The notes under the pieces: model-generated
Told to the model about the DNA's origin: nothing
Seen by the model: the letters and a program-made list of their open reading frames with translations, nothing else
The model's database searches: none
Translations under genes and position numbers: made by a program
Source of the DNA: Candidatus Bathyarchaeota archaeon
GTDB taxonomy: Archaea; Thermoproteota; Bathyarchaeia; Bathyarchaeales; Bathycorpusculaceae
Direction of reading: 5' to 3'
Assembly: GCA_022865885.1 (NCBI GenBank)
Contig: JALHSQ010000055.1
Location: 61,618 to 125,617, forward strand
Length of the DNA: 64,000 nt
Shown here: positions 4,849 through 53,803 of the stretch, one piece after another
Position numbering within the stretch: the stretch's first letter is position 1
Layout of the letters: every line of letters starts with the position of its first letter

Positions 4849-5634
4849 TTACGTTGGAACCGGAAAAGAAAGTCTAAGGCCAACGTCCTCTTGATATTGA
4901 ATCGAAATTCTCTCCCTAAATCTGCCATCTTCAAGAATACCGCTGAACTCTTCGACTAACGGTTCTTTCCTAGAACAGAAGACTACTTCGTTTTGGTCAT
5001 TGGCCCATATTGTCAAGCCTCTTGTCTTTCCTTTGTGAATGAAATGCAAGTAAGCGTCTTCTCCGCGCATCAGCAAAATGCAGATTGCCCCAGAACCATG
5101 AATCGCACAGAAAAGCGCGTTCAAGGCCTCATTTACTTCTCCCTTTTCGCTTAGTAGTTCATCGAAAAGATGTGGGATCACTTCTGAGTCGATAAGCTCC
5201 ACTTTTTCAGACTCAAGAACGGGGGTCTCTCTGAGACTCTTTCTGAGTTCCTGATAATTCTCCACCTTACCATTATGGATTGAGACGATCTTCCACTTCT
5301 TGTTTCGTTGGACGAAGTAAGGCTGCGCCGTTTCCTTGAACCTTGCATTGTCCATAAACTCAGGACTTGGCATCCGCACATGAGCAACCAAAACACGTGT
5401 TTCCCCGGTTTTGACGGTACTTGCCAGCAGTCTTGCTGGAGATACTTCACCAGGTTTCCCGATTTTTTCAAGCGCGATTCCTCCATCGCTTTGTAGGAAA
5501 GCTAGACCTGCACCGTATCCCCCAACCGGTCTTGGTTCATATGGATACTGATGGACTTCCAGTTTTTCAAGGACTTTAAGAGCGTCAGCTAGAGGTCTTG
5601 GTTTCTTGAGTGCAAAGCCAAATATCCCACACAT
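4849..5634 (-). CDS. Class II (Ntn-type) glutamine amidotransferase domain protein
   Basis: N-terminal MCGIFG with the catalytic Cys2 is typical of the GATase class II fold (GlmS/PurF/AsnB N-domain). The 261-aa stand-alone domain has no synthase half. Confidence 0.65.
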   Translation of the reverse strand: MCGIFGFALKKPRPLADALKVLEKLEVHQYPYEPRPVGGYGAGLAFLQSDGGIALEKIGKPGEVSPARLLASTVKTGETRVLVAHVRMPSPEFMDNARFKETAQPYFVQRNKKWKIVSIHNGKVENYQELRKSLRETPVLESEKVELIDSEVIPHLFDELLSEKGEVNEALNALFCAIHGSGAICILLMRGEDAYLHFIHKGKTRGLTIWANDQNEVVFCSRKEPLVEEFSGILEDGRFRERISIQYQEDVGLRLSFPVPT

Positions 5635-6098
5635 CTAGCGTCGCTTCTTCAACAGTATTCCGACTTCTCTTTATTCGATATACGGTTAGCTTAACCTTTT
5701 GTTGCTGCTAGCATTGATTTGGCGAACTTGCTCTATGATAGGTTTGCAATATTGCCGTTTTCAGAGAGAGGGACGTTTGGAATGCTCATATGGCTCTAGT
5801 AGGCTTGTTGTAATCATGGTTTTGCATGTATTCGTTGTTAAGCATGTTAAGCACACCTTCATCGTGGCTGCAAGAGCTGAATTCGCAGATATCCAAGAAC
5901 CTACCAGTATTAGCGTTCAAAAGATTCTTTTGATTTTTTTTCAACTCTTCCTCAAAGAATAGCATAATGTGACATTACAATACAGGATTCGTGTGAAATC
6001 GCTCCGTTTGTCTGAAATCAGGATTTCCATTTCATATGAGTTAAAAGCATCTGTCCGCGACTACTTTCCATGAATAACACGTTACGGAAGCTGCTGAA

Positions 6099-8966
6099 AT
6101 GTCGTCTCTGGACTTGATGAGCAGCATCGTTGGGTTAGCGTCGGCTGCGATATGGTTTGCCTCTGCCTTTCTTGTGTATCGTAAGAGGCACATTAGGCCA
6201 TACATTCCGCTGTTTCTTCTGTTCTGGGGCTGCGCTTCTTTTCTGGACGTACTTTACAAATTTCTCCATGAGCCTTTGGTGGCGGCTTCTTTTTACTCAT
6301 CCTGCTTTTTTGCTTTCATATTCATCGCCAAATCTATCTCAGAGCCACTGGGAAATCATGTTTGGACAAAGTCTGCGGATTCATCCAAGACTAGAAGGCT
6401 GAGACTTGATCTAGCTTCATTTATTATGACCTATGCAGCAATGATGGGTCTAGCAGCATTTGTCCCAGGCGCCATATCGACTCAAAGGATGGTGGCAGAT
6501 TGGTATTTTGTAGGTACAATTGGTTTCTTCATCAGTTATTATCCTGTGTTTTCTTGGATTTTCTGGAGGTATTGGAAACTCAGAGAAACGATTGCAAAAG
6601 CTTCTACGATAACAGGCCACAAGCTGGTGGTCGGTTCATTCATCATCGGCTTCTTTATGTTTCCGCTTGTGACGGCCTTCCAGTTCGGCACTTCACTTTT
6701 GCCAGAATGGATTGTAGACACTTTGGTTGCGGTGCTTACGGTAACAATAATCACTCCTTCGATAATGCTTGGCGAGAGCAGATCATCTTTCGACCGCCTT
6801 TATTGGGCGTTCTCAAACAAGAGACAGCTCGAACTCCTAAGAATCGCCGTTCAGCAGAGTACCGATGGCATAGCGATAACGGATATGTCTGGTCGAATCA
6901 TCTTCACCAACTCTGGTTGGGAGCAAATGCATGGATACGAAAAAGATGAGTCGTTAGGCAAGAATCTTAGTGCCATTCAAGACAAACCGTTGCAAAAAAC
7001 TGGAACTGCACCAAAGACACTATTGTCGGAGGGTTCGTGGACAAGAGAAATCAATCATTCGAAGAAGGATGGCACGGTATTTCCAGCACTAACCACGATG
7101 AGTCTTCTGAAAGACATCGAAGGAAAACCACTGGCTACTCTTACCATTAGTAGAGACATAACTGAACGCAAGCGGACAGAGCGAATATTGAGGGAAAGTG
7201 AAGCAAGATACCGAGACCTTTCCGCAAGACTGGAGAGCCTGATGAGAAGTTCAGCAGTCATGCTTCGCACCGTGGACTTGCGCAAAAGGCTCAAGGCTAT
7301 CGCCGAAGCCGTCCATGAACAAGGCTGGGGTAGAGTAGTAATATCCTTGAGAGACGAAAATCTAAACACCATAGACGTGGTGACTGCTGGTTTAAGCTCA
7401 AGAGAGGAGATCTATTTGATGGAGCATCAGTCGCCAGGACACGTGTGGCGAGAACGTTTAGGTTCTTTGTTTGAACGTTATCGCATAGGCGATTTCTACT
7501 ATCTTCCTTGGAACGATCCTCTTGTCCAAGACCAATTCAAGAACGTGCTTCCCAGCAAGGTATCTAAGAAGGAAGTGATTGACTGGAACCCAGATGATCT
7601 GTTGTACATTCCCCTGCAATTGCCTACAGGGCAAGTGGTAGGCATAATGAGCATGGATGATCCGGCAAGCGGTCGACGTCCCACAAAGGACTCGCTTGCT
7701 CCTATCGAGCTATTCGCTCATCAAGCCGCTGCAGCTATAGAAAATGCGCGTCTGGTTCAGGAGCTGAACCAAGCGAAAAATCAATTGAGTGAATACTCAA
7801 CACGTCTCGAAGAAAAAGTTGAAGAGAAGGCGACTGATTTGAGGAGAAGCGAAGAGAAGCTCAGAAGCATGATTGCGGCTTCTCCCGATGCTATGTTCGC
7901 GGTTGATCTTAATGGGAACATAATCGAATGCAATGATCAACTGTGGAAAATGCATGGCTATTCTTCTGGAAAAGAGGTAATGGGCAAAAACTGTCTTGAG
8001 TTGGTGCCCAAAAGAGATCACTCAAAGATCAGGGAATTCATGAAGCTTATCATGAAACAAGGTTCAATCAGAAACAGAGAATGCGCTTTTCTGACGAAGT
8101 ATGGTCACGAATTCGCAGGAGAGATTTCCGCAAGTCTTATCCAGACTGAGACTGGCGGACCAACAGGTTTCGTGGCAATAACCAAAGACTTGACTGAGCG
8201 CAAACAAATGGAGCAGCAGCTTCTCAAATCAGAGAAATTCGCTGCCATCGGAGAATTAGCCACCATGATCGGACATGACTTGCGAAATCCACTTACAGGC
8301 ATTAATAATGCAACGTACTACCTGAAAACAAGATACGGCGCAAGGCTGGATTCTAAGGGAATGGAGATGCTTGAACTCACTGAGAAGTGTATCGAATATT
8401 CCAACAAAATCGTTGACGATCTCTTGGAATACTCGCGAGACATACGATTGGATACGACGATTGTCACCCTTAGATCTATGATAGAAGACTCTCTGTCAAT
8501 CCTTGCAATCCCAAAGACAATTCAAGTCGTAAACTTGACGAAAAACAAGCCAATGGTTAAGGTTGATCCGGGAAGACTCAAGAGAGCATTCATCAACATC
8601 ATCAAGAACGCCATAGATGCCATGCCTAGAGGGGGCACCCTAACAATAAGGAATAGAATATCGAATGACAACGTGGAGTTTCTCTTTGTTGACACGGGAA
8701 TGGGTATGCCGAAAGATCTGATTGAAAAGCTCTTCACTCCACTGTTCACAACAAAGGCGAAGGGGATGGGTTTTGGTCTAGCGATATGCAAACGCATAGT
8801 CGAAGCGCATGGAGGCAAAATCACAGTAGCAAGCTCGATAGGTAAAGGAACCACATTCACCGTAACGATACCTATCAATCACAGGTCAACGGAAGACGAG
8901 AACGTATTCGTGGAGTTGCCTAAATCCCCGTCACTGGATACAAGACCCGTCAGGGAATGCAAATAA
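6099..8966 (+). CDS. Multi-domain sensor histidine kinase: N-terminal approx 7-TM sensor, several PAS/GAF modules, HisKA and HATPase_c
   Basis: H-box IGHDLRNPLT, N-box IKNAIDAM, G-boxes DTGMGMP and GMGFGLAICKRIVEAHGG. The PAS domains show repeated PAS-like blocks such as ITDMSGRIIFTNSGWEQMHGY and VDLNGNIIECNDQLWKMHGY. No adjacent response regulator. Confidence 0.85.
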   Translation: MSSLDLMSSIVGLASAAIWFASAFLVYRKRHIRPYIPLFLLFWGCASFLDVLYKFLHEPLVAASFYSSCFFAFIFIAKSISEPLGNHVWTKSADSSKTRRLRLDLASFIMTYAAMMGLAAFVPGAISTQRMVADWYFVGTIGFFISYYPVFSWIFWRYWKLRETIAKASTITGHKLVVGSFIIGFFMFPLVTAFQFGTSLLPEWIVDTLVAVLTVTIITPSIMLGESRSSFDRLYWAFSNKRQLELLRIAVQQSTDGIAITDMSGRIIFTNSGWEQMHGYEKDESLGKNLSAIQDKPLQKTGTAPKTLLSEGSWTREINHSKKDGTVFPALTTMSLLKDIEGKPLATLTISRDITERKRTERILRESEARYRDLSARLESLMRSSAVMLRTVDLRKRLKAIAEAVHEQGWGRVVISLRDENLNTIDVVTAGLSSREEIYLMEHQSPGHVWRERLGSLFERYRIGDFYYLPWNDPLVQDQFKNVLPSKVSKKEVIDWNPDDLLYIPLQLPTGQVVGIMSMDDPASGRRPTKDSLAPIELFAHQAAAAIENARLVQELNQAKNQLSEYSTRLEEKVEEKATDLRRSEEKLRSMIAASPDAMFAVDLNGNIIECNDQLWKMHGYSSGKEVMGKNCLELVPKRDHSKIREFMKLIMKQGSIRNRECAFLTKYGHEFAGEISASLIQTETGGPTGFVAITKDLTERKQMEQQLLKSEKFAAIGELATMIGHDLRNPLTGINNATYYLKTRYGARLDSKGMEMLELTEKCIEYSNKIVDDLLEYSRDIRLDTTIVTLRSMIEDSLSILAIPKTIQVVNLTKNKPMVKVDPGRLKRAFINIIKNAIDAMPRGGTLTIRNRISNDNVEFLFVDTGMGMPKDLIEKLFTPLFTTKAKGMGFGLAICKRIVEAHGGKITVASSIGKGTTFTVTIPINHRSTEDENVFVELPKSPSLDTRPVRECK

Positions 8967-44254: not shown

Positions 44255-44350
44255 GGGCCCGTAGCTCAGTAAGGATAGAGCACCGGACTTTTAAGCTGGA
44301 TGCTAAGCAAGGAAATCCGGGGGTCCCGGGTTCAAATCCCGGCGGGCCCG
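44255..44350 (+). tRNA. tRNA-Lys (anticodon UUU) with a 21-nt intron at the canonical 37/38 position. CCA not encoded
   Basis: Acceptor GGGCCCG/CGGGCCC. D-arm GCTC..GAGC. Anticodon stem CCGGA/TCCGG with loop CTTTTAA. The 21 nt between the loop and the 3' stem half (approx 44295-44315) is the intron. T-arm CCGGGTTCAAATCCCGG. Confidence 0.85.
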
Positions 44351-45758
44351 CTTCCATTCTCTTGGAAAGAACATGGGCTAAGAAATTCTGAACTAGTTTT
44401 CATTGTTATGAGCTTCAAGACAGTCTACAGTGGAACACAGAGCTTGTTATGTGGTTCTGTTTATGTTTAAGCCTTGGATTCTGGTCTCGCCTAGATCAAT
44501 TGATTGCCTATCTTCCTGGAGTCTCTTTCGCGTGCAAGCCTATCTGGAGCGTTGTCGTTCGAGTCTGGCGAGTTTTTTCTTCTTCCGTTTCCCCTCTCTT
44601 TCCTTCTTTTTCTGAGGCTGGAATTTTTGCTCTCTTGATTCATGTCTTTCGATGCTCAAGTGATTGTCTCCTTATTCACGTATTAAAACGGAGACTCTAA
44701 TCTCTTTTTCTCAAGACAGCGTGTGCTTCACTCTAGCGCCTTCAAGTCTGCGTTGTTAGCGCACGTGAAGGGCTAACTAGGATTGCATGTGCGTTTAGTC
44801 GCTATACGACATTCTCATCTTTCTCTTCCGTCTCTTTCATGCCAATTTCCCTGACTTTCGCCAATCCTTCTATCAACGCCATCTCCAATTCAATGACATA
44901 CACGTTTCCATATTCTTCTACCATTCTTTCAATAACTCCTAACACTTCTTGTTTCATTCTCTCCATTCGTTCCAAGTTTAGTTCTACAGTCATGATCGCC
45001 AACGTTTCACCCCCCCTTCTTCAGTCCATCTTTCTTCTTGGCCAGACTAAAGTTGCGCACAAGCCCTTAAATCATTCCACACTGGTGGGGCGACTTGCTT
45101 TGTTCTTCTGCGATGGTTCTTCTTCAGTGAATTCTGAATTCATCATGCTTATCTAGTCCGACGCGACTTGAATTCTATAGGTCCGGATAGATATGTCCCC
45201 GAGCGACAAGTCTGACGAATACTTGAGTTTCATGACCAGTTTCATGCAACATAGTAAAGGTCTTGGCGACGTTATCGCACGTTTACGCAAAGCCTTCGGG
45301 AATTCCTCTTCAAATGAAAAAAGCAACAAGATCAAGGACATTGAGAAGCGATATTCAGCCATTCAAGTTGACATCTTGAGTTTGATAACCTCAACATCTT
45401 CATCTCCAACGCCAAGTGGTCGAGATGAAGGCTTTCGTGGTCCTCCGGTGATAATAAGGTGCAGGCAATGGGAAGACTTCAAAGCCCAAGCAACCAACGC
45501 GAATACGGTTTCATTTCTGTACAAGAGCGAAGAACGATCTTTTCAGGTGGATGCTCTCAAGGAAGGGCGAGTCTACACCTTCAGTGGTCAATTACCCAAC
45601 GATCCTCATCTTTTGAGAATCTGGCTGTCAAAGGAGCTGAACGTTGAAGAGAGCAGAGTCCTAGAAGGTATCCTAGCAATAGGCTAGGAAAGAACGCCAC
45701 AGTGTGATGTAGCTTGCTTCAATAGTGCGACCGATTGGTCTTCCTTTCTTCTCTCTCT

Positions 45759-49805: not shown

Positions 49806-50282
49806 GTGGATTCCGATCCTCCGACCAAGCATGTCATGCGGAAATGCATTTTCTGTAGCTTATTTTTCATCTTTAGAATCACACTCAGGCATGTGGCATT
49901 CGGGGATAAAATTAAATTAGTGGAAGCAGCATCAAGCGTAGCCGTGAACCTCAAAACAGTAGTAGGCGCAATTGCTGTTACACTTTTCTTCTTTTTCGGC
50001 GTAATCTTAGCCTTAGCCACGAACTATTGGCCAACAAGCCTAGTGGTTGCTGCATTATTCTTCGTCGTAGGTTTTGGCATAATCGTCTTCATAGCTCGAA
50101 ACCCTGAAACGATCGTTCAAAAGCTGGAAGTCTCAGGCGAAATGAAGGCAGCTGGATTGAAATGTCCAAACTGTGGGGCTTCTGTGGATGCAAGTAGGTT
50201 TAAGATGATTTCTGGGGTGCCCTACGCAACGTGTTCTTACTGTGGGCACACGTTTGAGATTGCTGAGGAACCCAAATGGTGA
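49806..50282 (+). CDS. Membrane protein with C-terminal zinc ribbon (CPNCG...CSYCGH), start uncertain. Overlaps the start of the next gene
   Basis: Two or three TM helices then double CxxC. 7-nt overlap with 50276. Confidence 0.4.
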   Translation: MDSDPPTKHVMRKCIFCSLFFIFRITLRHVAFGDKIKLVEAASSVAVNLKTVVGAIAVTLFFFFGVILALATNYWPTSLVVAALFFVVGFGIIVFIARNPETIVQKLEVSGEMKAAGLKCPNCGASVDASRFKMISGVPYATCSYCGHTFEIAEEPKW

Positions 50283-51907
50283 GGTCTCTTTCTTTCTCGG
50301 CCATATTGATCGTTGCCTTCTTTCTGCTGTCATCTTTTGGCGCGATAGACGCGCAAGCACGAGAGTATCATTTTGATCAAGAATGGGCAAAGATCTGGAT
50401 AAACCAAGATGGAAGCATCGACCTATTCTATAACATTAGCATAACACTGGATAGTGGTAGCGAGATACATTACATAAGTGTCGGTCAACCTAAGGGCGAC
50501 TTCTCAATAGGTGCAGCCACGGATCAGTACAATAACACCTTGATGACATCGGATGCAAGCTCCGGAAGCGACTATAAGGCTCAAGTCAATCTAACTCCAC
50601 CATTGGAAGCCGGACAAACCATCTGGTTCACCATTACTACTAATGTTGCTCACATGATCATGGAGGACACGCAGAACCCCGGTAACGTTGGAATGCAGTT
50701 CAAGCCAACTTGGTGGTCGGAGGCAGAAGTGACTGATCTTCGCGTATCTGTAGTCCTACCCCCTAACGTCACCACAGAGAACGTCAAGACTCTTGTGGAT
50801 TGGGACAGCACATCGATGGAAAGCGGTCAACTGGTGATCTTTTGGGAGAGGCAAAACCTACCTCCAGACCAACAGTACACGTTCGGTCTTTCTTTCCCAA
50901 AGGAGTACGTGCAAACATACGGCACACAACCTTCAGGTGTACTCGTATTCTTCTCGAACTATGGATTCTGGCTAGCGGTGGGTGCTTTTTTTGTCGGCTT
51001 GGTCGTCATCATCATAGTCGTGGCCAGCAAAAGCCCTTACTCAACGCCAAGCATCAGTATGGAAACCTTAGGCGTGAGACGCGGTCTGACTGCTGTCGAA
51101 GCCTCTTGCCTGCTGGACCTTACACCACCAAAGATAGTTACAGAAATCCTCTACAGCCTCCTACAAAAGAGAGCCATTTGGGTGGAGTCCACAACGCCTT
51201 CACTCAAGCTCAAGATAATGAAACCCTTTGAGGGGAAAACAGGAACACGAGAAACACCTCTTCGATACTATGAAATCGATTTCCTCAACGCAGTCAAAGA
51301 GGATGGAATGTTGGACGAAGAAAAACTCGCTCACACAATAATGCGCCTTAGAGATAACTTGGAAGAAAAGACGCGTGGCTACTGCAGACGTGACACCATC
51401 GCCTACTATGAGAGTATAGTCAAGAAGGCCTGGGAACAAGTTGAGCAAGCAGGCACACCAGGATTAGCTTCCAACGCATACAACGAACAGCTTTTATGGC
51501 TGATGCTTGATCCCGAATATCAGTCAAGAACTCAAACATCATTTCGCGACAGAGTCTTCGAACCAAGCCCAATGTGGCTTTGGTTCTGGTATGGTTATCA
51601 ACACTATTACCCTCATCCAACGTACAAGCCTAATGTTGAGACGCCAACGCAGGGTGGACAACCACCTGTAATTCCAGGTTCTGACTTTGCAAACAATGTC
51701 ACGGCAGCCTTGACAAACACTTCCAACAACATTGTGGCTAATCTTGAAAAGTTCGCTAATTCCATATTGCCCGTGCCTGCTGGCGGAAGGGCTTCTCATG
51801 AACCTGCTCACAGTGATGCTACCTGTGTCTGTGCGTGTGCTGCGTGCGCGTGTGCTTGCGCTTGCGTGTCATGTGCATGTGCTTGCGCTGGGGGAGGAGT
51901 AGGATGA
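50276..51907 (+). CDS. Signal-peptide + single-TM protein (extracytoplasmic N-domain, cytoplasmic C-domain) ending in a Cys-Ala repeat tail. Candidate substrate of the downstream radical SAM/SPASM enzyme
   Basis: N-terminal signal peptide LSFSAILIVAFFLLSSFGAIDAQA. TM FWLAVGAFFVGLVVIIIVVA. C-terminus TCVCACAACACACACVSCACACAGGGVG encoded by a (TGYGCN)n repeat. Confidence 0.6.
   Translation: MVRSLSFSAILIVAFFLLSSFGAIDAQAREYHFDQEWAKIWINQDGSIDLFYNISITLDSGSEIHYISVGQPKGDFSIGAATDQYNNTLMTSDASSGSDYKAQVNLTPPLEAGQTIWFTITTNVAHMIMEDTQNPGNVGMQFKPTWWSEAEVTDLRVSVVLPPNVTTENVKTLVDWDSTSMESGQLVIFWERQNLPPDQQYTFGLSFPKEYVQTYGTQPSGVLVFFSNYGFWLAVGAFFVGLVVIIIVVASKSPYSTPSISMETLGVRRGLTAVEASCLLDLTPPKIVTEILYSLLQKRAIWVESTTPSLKLKIMKPFEGKTGTRETPLRYYEIDFLNAVKEDGMLDEEKLAHTIMRLRDNLEEKTRGYCRRDTIAYYESIVKKAWEQVEQAGTPGLASNAYNEQLLWLMLDPEYQSRTQTSFRDRVFEPSPMWLWFWYGYQHYYPHPTYKPNVETPTQGGQPPVIPGSDFANNVTAALTNTSNNIVANLEKFANSILPVPAGGRASHEPAHSDATCVCACAACACACACVSCACACAGGGVG
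51824..51889 (+). repeat. Coding simple-sequence repeat (tgt/tgc-gcn)n encoding alternating Cys-Ala (12 Cys in 22 residues)
   Basis: tgtgtctgtgcgtgtgctgcgtgcgcgtgtgcttgcgcttgcgtgtcatgtgcatgtgcttgcgct. Confidence 0.9.
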
Positions 51908-51926
51908 GAGTGAGCGTGGTCGAGCA

Positions 51927-53270
51927 ATGAATCTGCTCCGAAAGGTACTTGGTGGTACGATTCCTGAGGGTCGCTTCACCTATCGAGGGAAAGACAAGTT
52001 CACTGGGTTGGCGCTTCAACTTCGGGTTGAGCCTAAAGGGCTTGGTCTTCTCGTGATTAACGCAAATACTGTTCTTTACTTGAATGAAACTGCTACTGCC
52101 CACGCCTACTTCTTCATGCAGGGAATGCCGACAGATGAGGCTGTAAAGAAGATCAAGCGAATATACAGCGTGAACGCGGAAACCGCAAGGAAAGAGCATG
52201 AGAAATTAATCTACACTGTCAGTACATTGGCCCAGACAGAAAAGGTTTGCCCCATCTCGTTTCTTAACGTCAAAAGCATTGAACCGTTCACACAGCAGTA
52301 TTCAGCTCCTCTCCGCATGGACTTGGCGCTCACCTTCAGGTGCCAAAACAACTGCATCCACTGCTACGCCGGAGGCCCACATGAAACGAAGGAATTGACT
52401 ACTGAACAATGGAAAACAGTCATAGACCGCCTCCATGAGATCGGCATATTCATAGTCACTTCCACTGGGGGCGAACCAACTCTCAGAGATGATTTGCCAG
52501 AGCTTTTGGAATACGCACAGAATAAGGGAATAGTCACAGGGCTTGTCACGAACGGCAGAAAACTCAAGGATAGAAACTACGTGAAGATTCTTGAGAAAGC
52601 TGGACTAGATTTCGTGCAAGTAACCCTCGAATCACACAAAGCCGAAATCCACGACAAGATGACAGAAACTAAAGGAAGCTGGAAAGAAACAGTTCAAGGC
52701 ATCAAGAACGCGGTTTCCACCCAGATCTACGTGACGACAAACACAACCCTGAGCAAGCACAACGCGACAAGTTTTCTCGAAACGATCGACTTCCTAAAAG
52801 AGTTGGGCGTCGCAAGCTTCGGATGTAACAGCCTTATCTATTCCGGAAAAGGCGAAAAAATAGGCGACGAGTTTGTCCTTTCGTTGGAGATGCTCAATGA
52901 ATTGCTGCCAGAAGTCCAGGACAAGGCCAACAAGCTTGGCTTAAAGTTCCTTTGGTATACACCCACGCAATACTGTCGCTTCAACCCTGTAACTTATGGG
53001 CTAGGCATCAAATCCTGTACTGCAGCGATGATTAACATGTGTGTTGGACCAGACGGCGAAGTCTACCCCTGCCAAAGCTACTTTGAAAGCCTAGGCAACA
53101 TTCTCAAAGTCAGTTGGCAATCAATCTGGAACAATCCGCTCGCAGTAAGCATTCGAAAAAGAGAATACGCAGAACCCAAGTGCAAGAGCTGTCCGCAGAT
53201 TCAGCTATGCGGCGGTGGATGCCCACTTGAACTGAAAGAAAAGAAATACCTTTGTGCTGAGTCACAGTGA
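51927..53270 (+). CDS. Radical SAM enzyme with C-terminal SPASM domain and N-terminal PqqD-like RRE (peptide/protein-modifying maturase)
   Basis: CQNNCIHC (Cx3Cx2C). SPASM motif CKSCPQIQLCGGGC (Cx2Cx5Cx3C) plus upstream Cys. N-terminal LNETATAHAYFFMQGMPTDEAVKKIKRIYSVNAETARKEHEKLIYTV is PqqD/RRE-like. Confidence 0.85.
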   Translation: MNLLRKVLGGTIPEGRFTYRGKDKFTGLALQLRVEPKGLGLLVINANTVLYLNETATAHAYFFMQGMPTDEAVKKIKRIYSVNAETARKEHEKLIYTVSTLAQTEKVCPISFLNVKSIEPFTQQYSAPLRMDLALTFRCQNNCIHCYAGGPHETKELTTEQWKTVIDRLHEIGIFIVTSTGGEPTLRDDLPELLEYAQNKGIVTGLVTNGRKLKDRNYVKILEKAGLDFVQVTLESHKAEIHDKMTETKGSWKETVQGIKNAVSTQIYVTTNTTLSKHNATSFLETIDFLKELGVASFGCNSLIYSGKGEKIGDEFVLSLEMLNELLPEVQDKANKLGLKFLWYTPTQYCRFNPVTYGLGIKSCTAAMINMCVGPDGEVYPCQSYFESLGNILKVSWQSIWNNPLAVSIRKREYAEPKCKSCPQIQLCGGGCPLELKEKKYLCAESQ

Positions 53271-53383
53271 CTCAACAGTTTACCGGTTTTCTCCACGCTC
53301 GCGGTTTCCAGACTCTGCGCACTATAATAAGCTTAATATAAGAAAACCAATAGACTGCACACCAACAAGAAAGGTGGAAAAAC

Positions 53384-53803
53384 TTGGCATCGAAGAAATT
53401 GTTAGACTTGCTAAACGCAGGCATTGCTAGAGAGATGCAAGTTGCAGTGCAATATATGTGGCAGCACGTTCAATGGATCGGGGTTAAGGGTTTCGCGACA
53501 AAAGACGCATTCCAAGAGATAGCTGTGGCTGAAATGAAGCATGCCGAAGCGATTGCAGAGAGACTCTTCTACTTAGGCGCTATACCTACCACGAAGCCGG
53601 ATCCGATCAACGTTGGCAAAACCTTGAAAGAAATGATCGCGCAAGACGTGAAAGACGAGGAAAAGGCAATAACACTTTACAAACAGATCATAGAACTGGC
53701 CAGAAAAGAGAATGATGAGACAACTGCATTTCTTTTCATGGGAATCCTGAAGGACGAGGAAGACCATCACGATACATTCACAACCTTGCTGGAGCAAGTA
53801 TAG
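53384..53803 (+). CDS. Ferritin-like di-iron protein (bacterioferritin/Dps-like four-helix bundle)
   Basis: Glu/His ligand spacing E17, E51xxH54, E94, E127xxH130 (AREMQVAVQY; EMKHAEAIAERL; DEEKAITLY; DEEDHHDTF). Confidence 0.65.
   Translation: MASKKLLDLLNAGIAREMQVAVQYMWQHVQWIGVKGFATKDAFQEIAVAEMKHAEAIAERLFYLGAIPTTKPDPINVGKTLKEMIAQDVKDEEKAITLYKQIIELARKENDETTAFLFMGILKDEEDHHDTFTTLLEQV

Follow-up and report, generated by a model that had tools for sequence, protein, structure and literature searches.

We describe a three-gene module in a 64,000-nucleotide (nt) stretch of DNA from Candidatus Bathyarchaeota archaeon (contig JALHSQ010000055.1, positions 61,618 to 125,617 of the forward strand; the whole stretch is hereafter called the window). 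The module encodes a Zn-ribbon membrane protein (ZnTM), a single-pass membrane protein of 543 amino acids (aa) that ends in a Cys-Ala repeat, and a radical S-adenosylmethionine (SAM) enzyme (rSAM) that carries a SPASM region and a PqqD-like recognition element (RRE) of the type known from maturases of peptides that are ribosomally synthesized and then modified posttranslationally (RiPPs). The gene order is kept across phyla and in both prokaryotic domains, and the repeat tail, judging from its coding sequences, is under purifying selection at the protein level. We consider it reasonably probable (roughly 60%), by analogy with characterized enzymes of this class, that rSAM modifies the tail in situ in a RiPP-like manner, most likely by installing thioether cross-links.

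The three genes, taken from the list of open reading frames (ORFs) in the window, follow one another closely on the forward strand: ZnTM (gene 1, 158 aa) at 49806..50282 (+), the tail-bearing membrane protein, which is the presumed substrate (gene 2, 543 aa), at 50276..51907 (+), and rSAM (gene 3, 447 aa) at 51927..53270 (+). The stop of ZnTM and the start of the membrane protein overlap by 7 nt, and 19 nt separate the stop of the membrane protein from the start of rSAM. These coordinates, like those of a ferritin-like gene farther downstream, are the ones given in the original prediction, a reading of this DNA from its letters and ORFs that first drew attention to the locus. The 543-aa protein matches the NCBI entry MUP01_03290 at 100%.

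Conservation of the module was examined from the side of the enzyme and from the side of the tail. Using rSAM as the query against one genome per GTDB species, we identified 38 loci of the Bathyarchaeia type (rSAM 66-77% identical to the window enzyme) and one locus from Thermoplasmatota (41% identical). The tail protein lies directly upstream of rSAM in 38 of these 39 loci (37 Bathyarchaeia and the Thermoplasmatota locus), the only exception, L036, being broken by a run of N, and ZnTM precedes the tail protein in 35 of them, the remaining four being truncated or interrupted upstream. Two orthologues from Anaerolineae, inspected for gene context from the enzyme side, have the other two genes of the module beside them, with the same tail. 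Metagenome contigs were scanned in the opposite direction, with a DNA pattern for CACACAGCACACAGGGR as the sole criterion, which yielded at least 120 loci, 100 of them with at least 600 nt of downstream sequence. An rSAM orthologue, 42-50% identical to the window enzyme, lies on the same strand within 2 kb in 95 of these 100: it starts at most 400 nt downstream in 84 (median gap 47 nt) and is 0.6-1.9 kb away in 11. In one further locus rSAM is encoded on the opposite strand, and in the other four no rSAM is found. Where the gap is larger, it is occupied by a second tail-protein paralogue (L115, L138), by a transposase-like ORF accompanied by repeats (six loci), or by unrelated genes. ZnTM is found upstream in 59 of the 61 metagenome loci with enough upstream sequence.

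The association of rSAM with a Cys-Ala-tailed membrane protein, proposed from a single locus, is thus kept across phyla and in both prokaryotic domains, and the suggestion that ZnTM belongs to the same unit is borne out by both scans. All-against-all clustering of the ORFs at the metagenome loci (at least 120) returned three conserved genes only, shadow ORFs aside, with no conserved small precursor, protease, or exporter among them; pairing of rSAM with a separate small precursor, the outcome that the original prediction had named as speaking against itself, was not observed. The real unit therefore consists of three genes, with ZnTM as an obligate partner of the tail protein and rSAM.

Several individual loci depart from the standard layout. 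The cassette of L001 (DATKLC010000030.1), which is labelled Krumholzibacteriaceae, is 77% identical to the Bathyarchaeia one and probably mis-binned. On CP070835.1 (L036 and L037) the two parts of a split rSAM lie far from each other, and there is a run of N; apparent frameshifts occur in rSAM of L038 and in the tail protein of L039. Tandem tail-bearing paralogues precede a single rSAM gene in L115 (6723..8456) and L138 (2371..4101). An ORF of ~180 aa (…FKKAPHNPPHLF…WNPVKHGL…), presumably related to the transposases associated with repetitive extragenic palindromic (REP) sequences (REP-associated tyrosine, IS200-like), is inserted between the tail gene and rSAM in L052, L059, L062, L105, L120, and L143, with short repeats flanking it in L105 and L120. 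An ORF of ~110 aa (MTEIPWFKELPLAITICDAEGILLDMNDAAAKVFEEDGG…), which we take to be PAS-like, follows rSAM in ~15 of the motif-selected loci, all from one lineage (among them L153 at ~5520..6124, L132, L113, L059, and L075).

We further find that the module is widespread among anaerobic archaea and bacteria. When 1.84 billion cluster representatives were searched exhaustively, the tail protein fell into a family of 572 clusters at 50% identity (E ≤ 0.001), and the Cys-Ala tail sits at the C terminus in 97 of the 104 representatives of at least 480 aa among the matches listed. Carriers that bear a name include Bathyarchaeia, Thermoplasmatota, Methanocella sp. CWC-04 (Methanooceanicella nereidis; homologue MCD1294824.1), Korarchaeota, Candidatus Ranarchaeia (Asgard), Anaerolineae, and Candidatus Zymogenus saltonus, so that the module spans at least five archaeal lineages, one Asgard class among them, and at least two bacterial lineages.

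The 543-aa protein has the C terminus TCVCACAACACACACVSCACACAGGGVG, within which alignments and the identity profile delimit the tail itself as CVCACAACACACACVSCACACAGGGVG (residues 517-543; 51824..51904, +). It contains 10 Cys arranged in blocks of 3+4+3 (not the 12 first counted), and exactly 10 are present in each of the 120 closest homologues (63-97% identity). Comparing the tail-coding DNA of the window with that of 36 related loci, nearly all labelled Bathyarchaeia or Bathyarchaeota, we found that all 37 sequences are distinct in DNA and invariant in amino acids, each Cys position using both codons and each conserved Ala position all four. The tail is also the best-conserved segment of the protein: identity among Bathyarchaeia homologues is 96% in the tail, 74% in the cytoplasmic domain, 71% in a motif preceding the tail, 64% in the ectodomain, and 43% in the linker. 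This pattern indicates purifying selection on the encoded amino acids. The description of the coding DNA as a microsatellite was not upheld, since Tandem Repeats Finder (TRF) detects only weak periods of 16 and 21 nt and the codons are synonymously saturated. An assembly or slippage artefact is ruled out by the 10 Cys in 120 of 120 homologues, the 37 different DNA sequences, and the TRF result.

Tails of the same kind persist in distant relatives. A Thermoplasmatota tail protein that is 24-26% identical to the window protein still ends in GGGGGCACACACACACAGGGR. Three forms are common: CACACACAGCACACAGGGR, with 7 Cys; the one with 10 Cys, of which the Bathyarchaeia proteins are typical; and CACVSCACACVSCACACACAGGGGGCT, carried by the Methanocella representative, to which CACACACVSCACACACAGGGGCT is related. 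Two representatives, P0271 (659 aa) and P0291 (675 aa), have the Cys tail in an internal position (CHCVCACVSCACVCACVSCACACASGGGF...), followed by an extra domain of ~95 aa, so the tail need not form the extreme C terminus. The tail is hydrophobic on the Kyte-Doolittle scale (2.25). We considered a tail-anchor transmembrane (TM) helix and set it aside, the common 7-Cys form amounting to 15 residues after a Gly/Ser linker.

Hydropathy and an AlphaFold2 (AF2) model of the membrane protein support the topology first proposed for it, with a signal peptide (residues 1-28 of gene 2), an extracytoplasmic domain, one TM helix, and a cytoplasmic remainder. The extracytoplasmic domain (residues 29-221; 50360..50938, +) is modeled as a beta sandwich, with a predicted local distance difference test (pLDDT) score of ~90 over residues ~30-210, and the TM helix covers residues ~226-250 (AF2 helix 222-256; 50951..51025, +). 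The C-terminal half is placed in the cytoplasm because positively charged residues (SKSPYSTPSISMETLGVRRG) flank the TM helix on its far side. The pLDDT falls below 50 from residue 393 onward, a range that includes cytoplasmic domain and tail, so that the model carries no structural conclusion on the tail.

Foldseek matches the ectodomain to ribophorin I/Ost1 (8b6l_O at 1.1e-9, 8pn9_E, 6s7t_E, and 6ezn_A), and also to the N-domain of M1 aminopeptidases and LTA4H. The matches to human RPN1 and yeast Ost1 chains have E values of 1e-9 to 6e-8 but TM-scores of only 0.26-0.36, the M1-peptidase N-domain matches are equally good, and there is no match in sequence. Pfam gave no match to the 543-aa protein or its isolated domains even at E ≤ 10, NCBIfam gave none, and no sequence relative of the protein was found in the PDB. 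Some homologues are named "DUF2207" or "OST subunit 1" by NCBI or UniRef; the best score to DUF2207 (PF09972, YciQ-like), from the Methanocella homologue, is 23.9 bits, just below the cut-off of 24.4. The tail protein resembles DUF2207, Ost1, and ribophorin I in overall plan, from a signal peptide and a beta-sandwich ectodomain to one TM helix and a C-terminal part in the cytoplasm, whereas the module lacks a catalytic subunit of oligosaccharyltransferase (OST), and to our knowledge neither a Cys-Ala tail nor an rSAM partner is a feature of DUF2207 or Ost1. By these comparisons a relation to DUF2207 would be remote at best.

The C-terminal region of the membrane protein is laid out like a RiPP precursor, with motif, linker, and core joined to a full-length protein. 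Aligned across the family, the last 130 residues of 98 representatives show the same succession in all lineages: a conserved motif, PGxxFA...E..S...V....F...V...TNPxP or, in a shorter form, PGxxFA...E..S...V....F...(I/V)..P (residues 466-499; 51671..51772, +), located ~20-40 residues before the tail, then a variable linker (residues 500-516; 51773..51823, +) that is often Gly/Ser-rich in other lineages, and then the tail. We infer that the RRE may recognize the motif much as it would a leader, and that the tail is the putative substrate.

Such a layout could also be that of a true RiPP pathway, with the first 515 residues in the role of a giant leader; the Cys-Ala peptide, once modified, would be cleaved off and released. 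The C-terminal core and the RRE-bearing maturase directly downstream are as in RiPP clusters, and long leaders exist, for example those of the NHLP/Nif11 type. However, no protease or exporter is conserved anywhere in ~150 loci, the supposed leader is a conserved multidomain membrane protein under purifying selection, and the tail is cytoplasmic and membrane-tethered by hydropathy and AF2, and is internal, with an extra domain behind it, in two representatives. We regard cleavage and release as very improbable.

The enzyme belongs by its domain architecture to the class proposed for it: Pfam, AF2, Foldseek, and a profile search of PDB sequences agree on an RRE + rSAM + SPASM protein of RiPP-maturase type, and an enzyme resembling the anaerobic sulfatase-maturating enzyme (anSME), or another nonpeptide rSAM lacking an RRE, is not what was found. 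Radical_SAM (PF04055) is matched at 1.1e-26 and SPASM (PF13186) at 3.3e-11. The motifs noticed at the outset, CQNNCIHC and CKSCPQIQLCGGGC, are both present, and their Cys are invariant in an alignment of 74 homologues that spans Bathyarchaeia and Anaerolineae. The CX3CX2C motif (C139/C143/C146; 52341..52364, +) is that of the SAM-binding [4Fe-4S] cluster and is invariant in 74 of 74. The SPASM region (52974..53255, +) has seven invariant Cys (C350, C364, C382, C419, C422, C428, and C432) in the typical spacing (C364...G377x4C382 and C419x2C422x5C428x3C432, plus C350), with C443 in 56 of 74; by count these are enough for two auxiliary clusters. Two other Cys stand outside the cluster motifs: C108 (VCPIS; 52248..52250), in the linker between RRE and barrel and invariant in 74 of 74, and C300 (GCNSLIYSG; 52824..52826), in a predicted strand of the radical-SAM core and present in 71 of 74. 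Each of the two is a candidate for an additional ligand or a hydrogen-atom donor.

The PqqD-like RRE (residues ~15-103; 51969..52235, +) comprises four beta-strands (15-52) followed by three helices (54-103), modeled with pLDDT values of 80-93 in an AF2 structure whose overall pLDDT is 82.5 and whose predicted template modeling score (pTM) is 0.85. The claim of such an element stands on its AF2 fold, on a structural alignment to SuiB that extends over 452-477 columns, i.e., the full length with the RRE included, and on an Anaerolineae orthologue (L056, 47% identical) that scores 29 bits to PqqD against a cut-off of 23.4 at the equivalent position; it does not stand on Pfam in the window protein, which stays below that cut-off. 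Most Anaerolineae orthologues carry a precomputed PF05402 assignment, NCBI lists one of them as "PqqD family peptide modification chaperone", and the Thermoplasmatota orthologue has no PqqD match in Pfam.

In the PDB, Foldseek ranks RiPP maturases first, with SkfB (3.6e-17) followed by SuiB (~2e-16) and CteB, all three of them full-length matches, and then BlsE, PqqE, DesII, GDGT-MAS, and anSME; a profile search of PDB sequences likewise places SkfB first (6.9e-29) and PqqE next. YydG/EpeE is among both the structural and the sequence matches. We also scanned all three proteins from three lineages against Pfam and NCBIfam, and no assignment to a curated family exceeded its cut-off. The rSAM reaches no NCBIfam equivalog, the best score, 145 bits to NirJ2, falling short of the cut-off of 500. 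Curated thioether enzymes score 94.8 against 300 (SkfB), 90.8 against 850 (AlbA), and 80.3 against 625 (StsB), and the remaining peptide systems 78.5 against 267.9 (HxsC), 104.6 against 400 (GeoRSP), and, in orthologues, 58-62 against 400 (rSAM_ACGX). The enzyme thus has the marks of an RRE-type maturase, namely CX3CX2C, the seven-Cys SPASM pattern, a PqqD-like RRE, and a co-encoded putative substrate, albeit a large protein and not a short peptide, and the architectural half of the proposed affiliation holds; assignment through curated models to the sactisynthase, ranthipeptide, ACGX, or HXS families does not. On sequence grounds the system fits the RRE-dependent rSAM/SPASM class and lies outside all of its curated subfamilies. 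A literature search found no description of this configuration, nor did we find a Pfam or NCBIfam model of it, in agreement with the initial impression that it belongs to no described family.

Since NirJ2, AhbD, and AhbC provide the top NCBIfam scores, and rSAM is very conserved (75-82% identity inside Bathyarchaeia), the enzyme could be a housekeeping cofactor enzyme of the NirJ/AhbD type whose adjacency to the tail gene is operonic only. Those scores are nevertheless below 30% of the equivalog cut-offs, heme and d1 enzymes have no RRE, and the gene order is kept across two domains, with rSAM beside the tail gene in nearly all loci that were selected by the tail; a cofactor enzyme is thus a highly unlikely explanation.

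In the mechanism that we propose, the RRE of rSAM would dock on the conserved motif of the membrane protein, the flexible linker would allow the tail to thread into the active site, and 5'-deoxyadenosyl-radical chemistry would modify the Cys-Ala repeat, the modified product remaining joined to the membrane protein. The products would most likely be intramolecular thioethers of the sactionine or ranthionine type, from Cys sulfur to a carbon of a neighboring Ala or Gly, which would make the tail a rigid cross-linked ladder. Thioethers are favored because, among RRE-rSAM-SPASM enzymes that act on Cys-rich substrates, they are the prevailing precedent (AlbA, SkfB, CteB, PapB, and QhpD; reviewed in PMC8326336 and PMC8172795) and because SkfB and CteB are among the closest relatives of the window enzyme, an analogy that supports this particular chemistry weakly.

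Sactisynthases and ranthipeptide maturases (SkfB, AlbA, CteB, and PapB) have the same RRE, barrel, and SPASM region, and a Cys-rich substrate encoded alongside. Their substrates are short separate precursors that are cleaved and exported, whereas here the putative core ends a 543-aa membrane protein and neither protease nor exporter accompanies it. QhpD is a SPASM enzyme that puts Cys thioethers into a polypeptide, and this polypeptide remains a component of a functional protein. Comparing published descriptions only, we see in it the nearest conceptual parallel, in that a protein subunit and not a secreted peptide is cross-linked, but its substrate QhpC is a small soluble subunit with links to Asp/Glu, and that system has no membrane protein, Cys-Ala repeat, or Zn-ribbon partner.

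A number of observations weigh against thioether modification of the tail. Ala is an unusual thioether acceptor, and we know of no sactipeptide precedent for the strict i/i+2 spacing of the Cys, nor of any CxCxCxC pattern with Ala acceptors among the substrates of sactisynthases and ranthipeptide maturases. PqqD, although the top Pfam match in the N-terminal 125 residues of the window rSAM (residues 45-95), is subthreshold there (E 0.043; 14.6 versus 23.4 bits). The NirJ2, AhbD, MftC, and PqqE models score at least as high on rSAM as those of SkfB and AlbA, and no sactisynthase or ranthipeptide-maturase equivalog of NCBIfam comes near its cut-off. Near-identical tail proteins in L081 (1475..3325) and L147 (9130..10974) have no ZnTM or rSAM within 2.7-5 kb; this lineage seems to carry the module in split form. 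ZnTM, moreover, ends in E-x-P-K-W-COOH in 105 of 106 loci from Archaea and Bacteria (EEPKW in 91), which makes it a second possible substrate. Finally, SPASM enzymes perform other chemistry on Cys: anSME, also a SPASM enzyme, makes formylglycine, and SbtM is a further case. SbtM is an rSAM/SPASM enzyme that forms a thio(seleno)oxazole at a Gly-Cys motif, i.e., thiooxazole chemistry at X-Cys, through abstraction of a C-beta hydrogen (PMC9204691).

These precedents define an alternative in which the same tail undergoes another chemistry: either C-beta oxidation like that of SbtM or anSME, yielding 5-thiooxazoles or formylglycine, or epimerization of every second residue. A thiooxazole chain would be a membrane-tethered metal chelator, and epimerization would give an alternating L/D peptide. 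Cys oxidation at X-Cys could operate on an (Ala-Cys)n tail, the SbtM model TIGR04082 matches orthologues of rSAM at 65-68 bits, and thiooxazole peptides made by MNIO enzymes are reported to bind copper. An epimerase with a Cys as hydrogen-atom donor would fit the strict two-residue period and the near-invariant C300, and YydG/EpeE is among the matches of the enzyme. On the other side, all such matches are far below the family cut-offs (350 bits for TIGR04082) and rank after SkfB, SuiB, and CteB, and the substrate of SbtM is a short selenocysteine/Cys peptide. The anSME resembles rSAM as a SPASM enzyme acting on Cys inside a full-length protein, but enzymes of its type have no RRE, the alignment covers SPASM only (residues 370-433), and the tail has no C-x-(P/A)-x-R sulfatase motif (CxPxR or CxAxR). 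We judge a chemistry of either kind to be unlikely, if deserving of attention.

ZnTM has two TM helices (residues ~43-101) and a C-terminal CxxC...CxxC Zn ribbon (CPNC...CSYC), which is present in 104 of the 106 loci and gives weak Zn-ribbon matches in Pfam. Its start codon is uncertain, the homologues aligning from residue ~24-50 onward. Its EEPKW end could be a docking peptide or an alternative substrate of rSAM. If the latter, the Cys tail might be left unmodified, serving in metal or Fe-S binding (in the way of a metallothionein, of which CxC spacing is typical) or in redox reactions, and rSAM would act on the ZnTM end, for example by a Lys/Trp cross-link, or on a nonprotein substrate such as a lipid. 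The near-universal E-x-P-K-W end would be accounted for in this way; SuiB, a Lys-Trp cross-linker, comes second among the structural matches, the WgkB model reaches 111 bits, and the lipid-modifying GDGT-MAS also matches the rSAM core. Yet just a few residues, which form no flexible linker, separate EEPKW from a folded Zn ribbon, whereas the Cys tail has the motif-linker-core arrangement, and we therefore rank the ZnTM end lower as a putative substrate. The match to GDGT-MAS is confined to residues 128-233 of the core, and the RRE argues for a peptide substrate. Metal binding alone would not explain the invariance of Ala, for which all four codons are used. A scan of the tail protein with the general Pfam-A library returned no metallothionein family, nor a match of any kind at E ≤ 0.01, and the CxC spacing amounts to a resemblance in sequence only. 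An unmodified tail therefore seems improbable to us, and in situ modification of the tail by rSAM remains the reading that we prefer.

Downstream of the module, 113 nt after rSAM, lies a ferritin/bacterioferritin-like gene (53384..53803, +; PF00210, 8.8e-29), which had been suggested as an operon member and as a pointer to metal handling. By tblastn it adjoins the cassette in none of the 39 related genome loci, and because it is not conserved there, the operon-based argument for metal handling falls. Genes for a flavin reductase, a CxxCxxCC protein, and LigD_N were likewise considered as members of the unit and rejected, none of them lying beside the cassette in the same tblastn comparison; the sole other match to a neighbor was a partial OCD in L039, ~6 kb away on the opposite strand. 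Elsewhere in the window we note a tRNA-Lys(UUU) gene of 97 nt (44255..44351, +), probably with an intron inside, and a thiamine pyrophosphate (TPP) riboswitch (RF00059; 31006..31119, −) that scores 57.3 bits, the gathering score being 54.3.

So far, RRE-dependent radical-SAM/SPASM enzymes have been recognized almost exclusively as producers of small secreted peptides; here the same machinery appears to be devoted to the terminus of a membrane protein that is conserved and housekeeping-like. What would be new is a presumed class of substrate, in which a conserved Ost1/DUF2207-like membrane protein offers its cytoplasmic tail, together with a putative (Cys-Ala)n core, a Zn-ribbon/EEPKW partner, and a broad spread among anaerobes of both domains. 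More tentatively, and with the odds rather against it, we may be looking at an ancient maturation system of anaerobic Archaea (Asgard, Korarchaeota, Bathyarchaeia, and methanogens among them) and Bacteria that equips an Ost1-like protein, on its cytoplasmic tail, with a protein-derived structure not seen before, with ZnTM as its obligate third subunit. If that is true, the structure could be a poly-thioether ladder, a thiooxazole chain, or an alternating L/D segment, and it would serve inside the protein as a cofactor, either in the handling of metal, sulfur, or electrons or in transmembrane signalling. With one enzyme and a peptide of ~100 residues, the system could bring to light radical chemistry that is new, on a (Cys-Ala)n substrate without precedent; it would give the first functional handle on the prokaryotic DUF2207/Ost1-like proteins, and would extend the leader-linker-core logic of RiPPs to the modification of proteins in situ.

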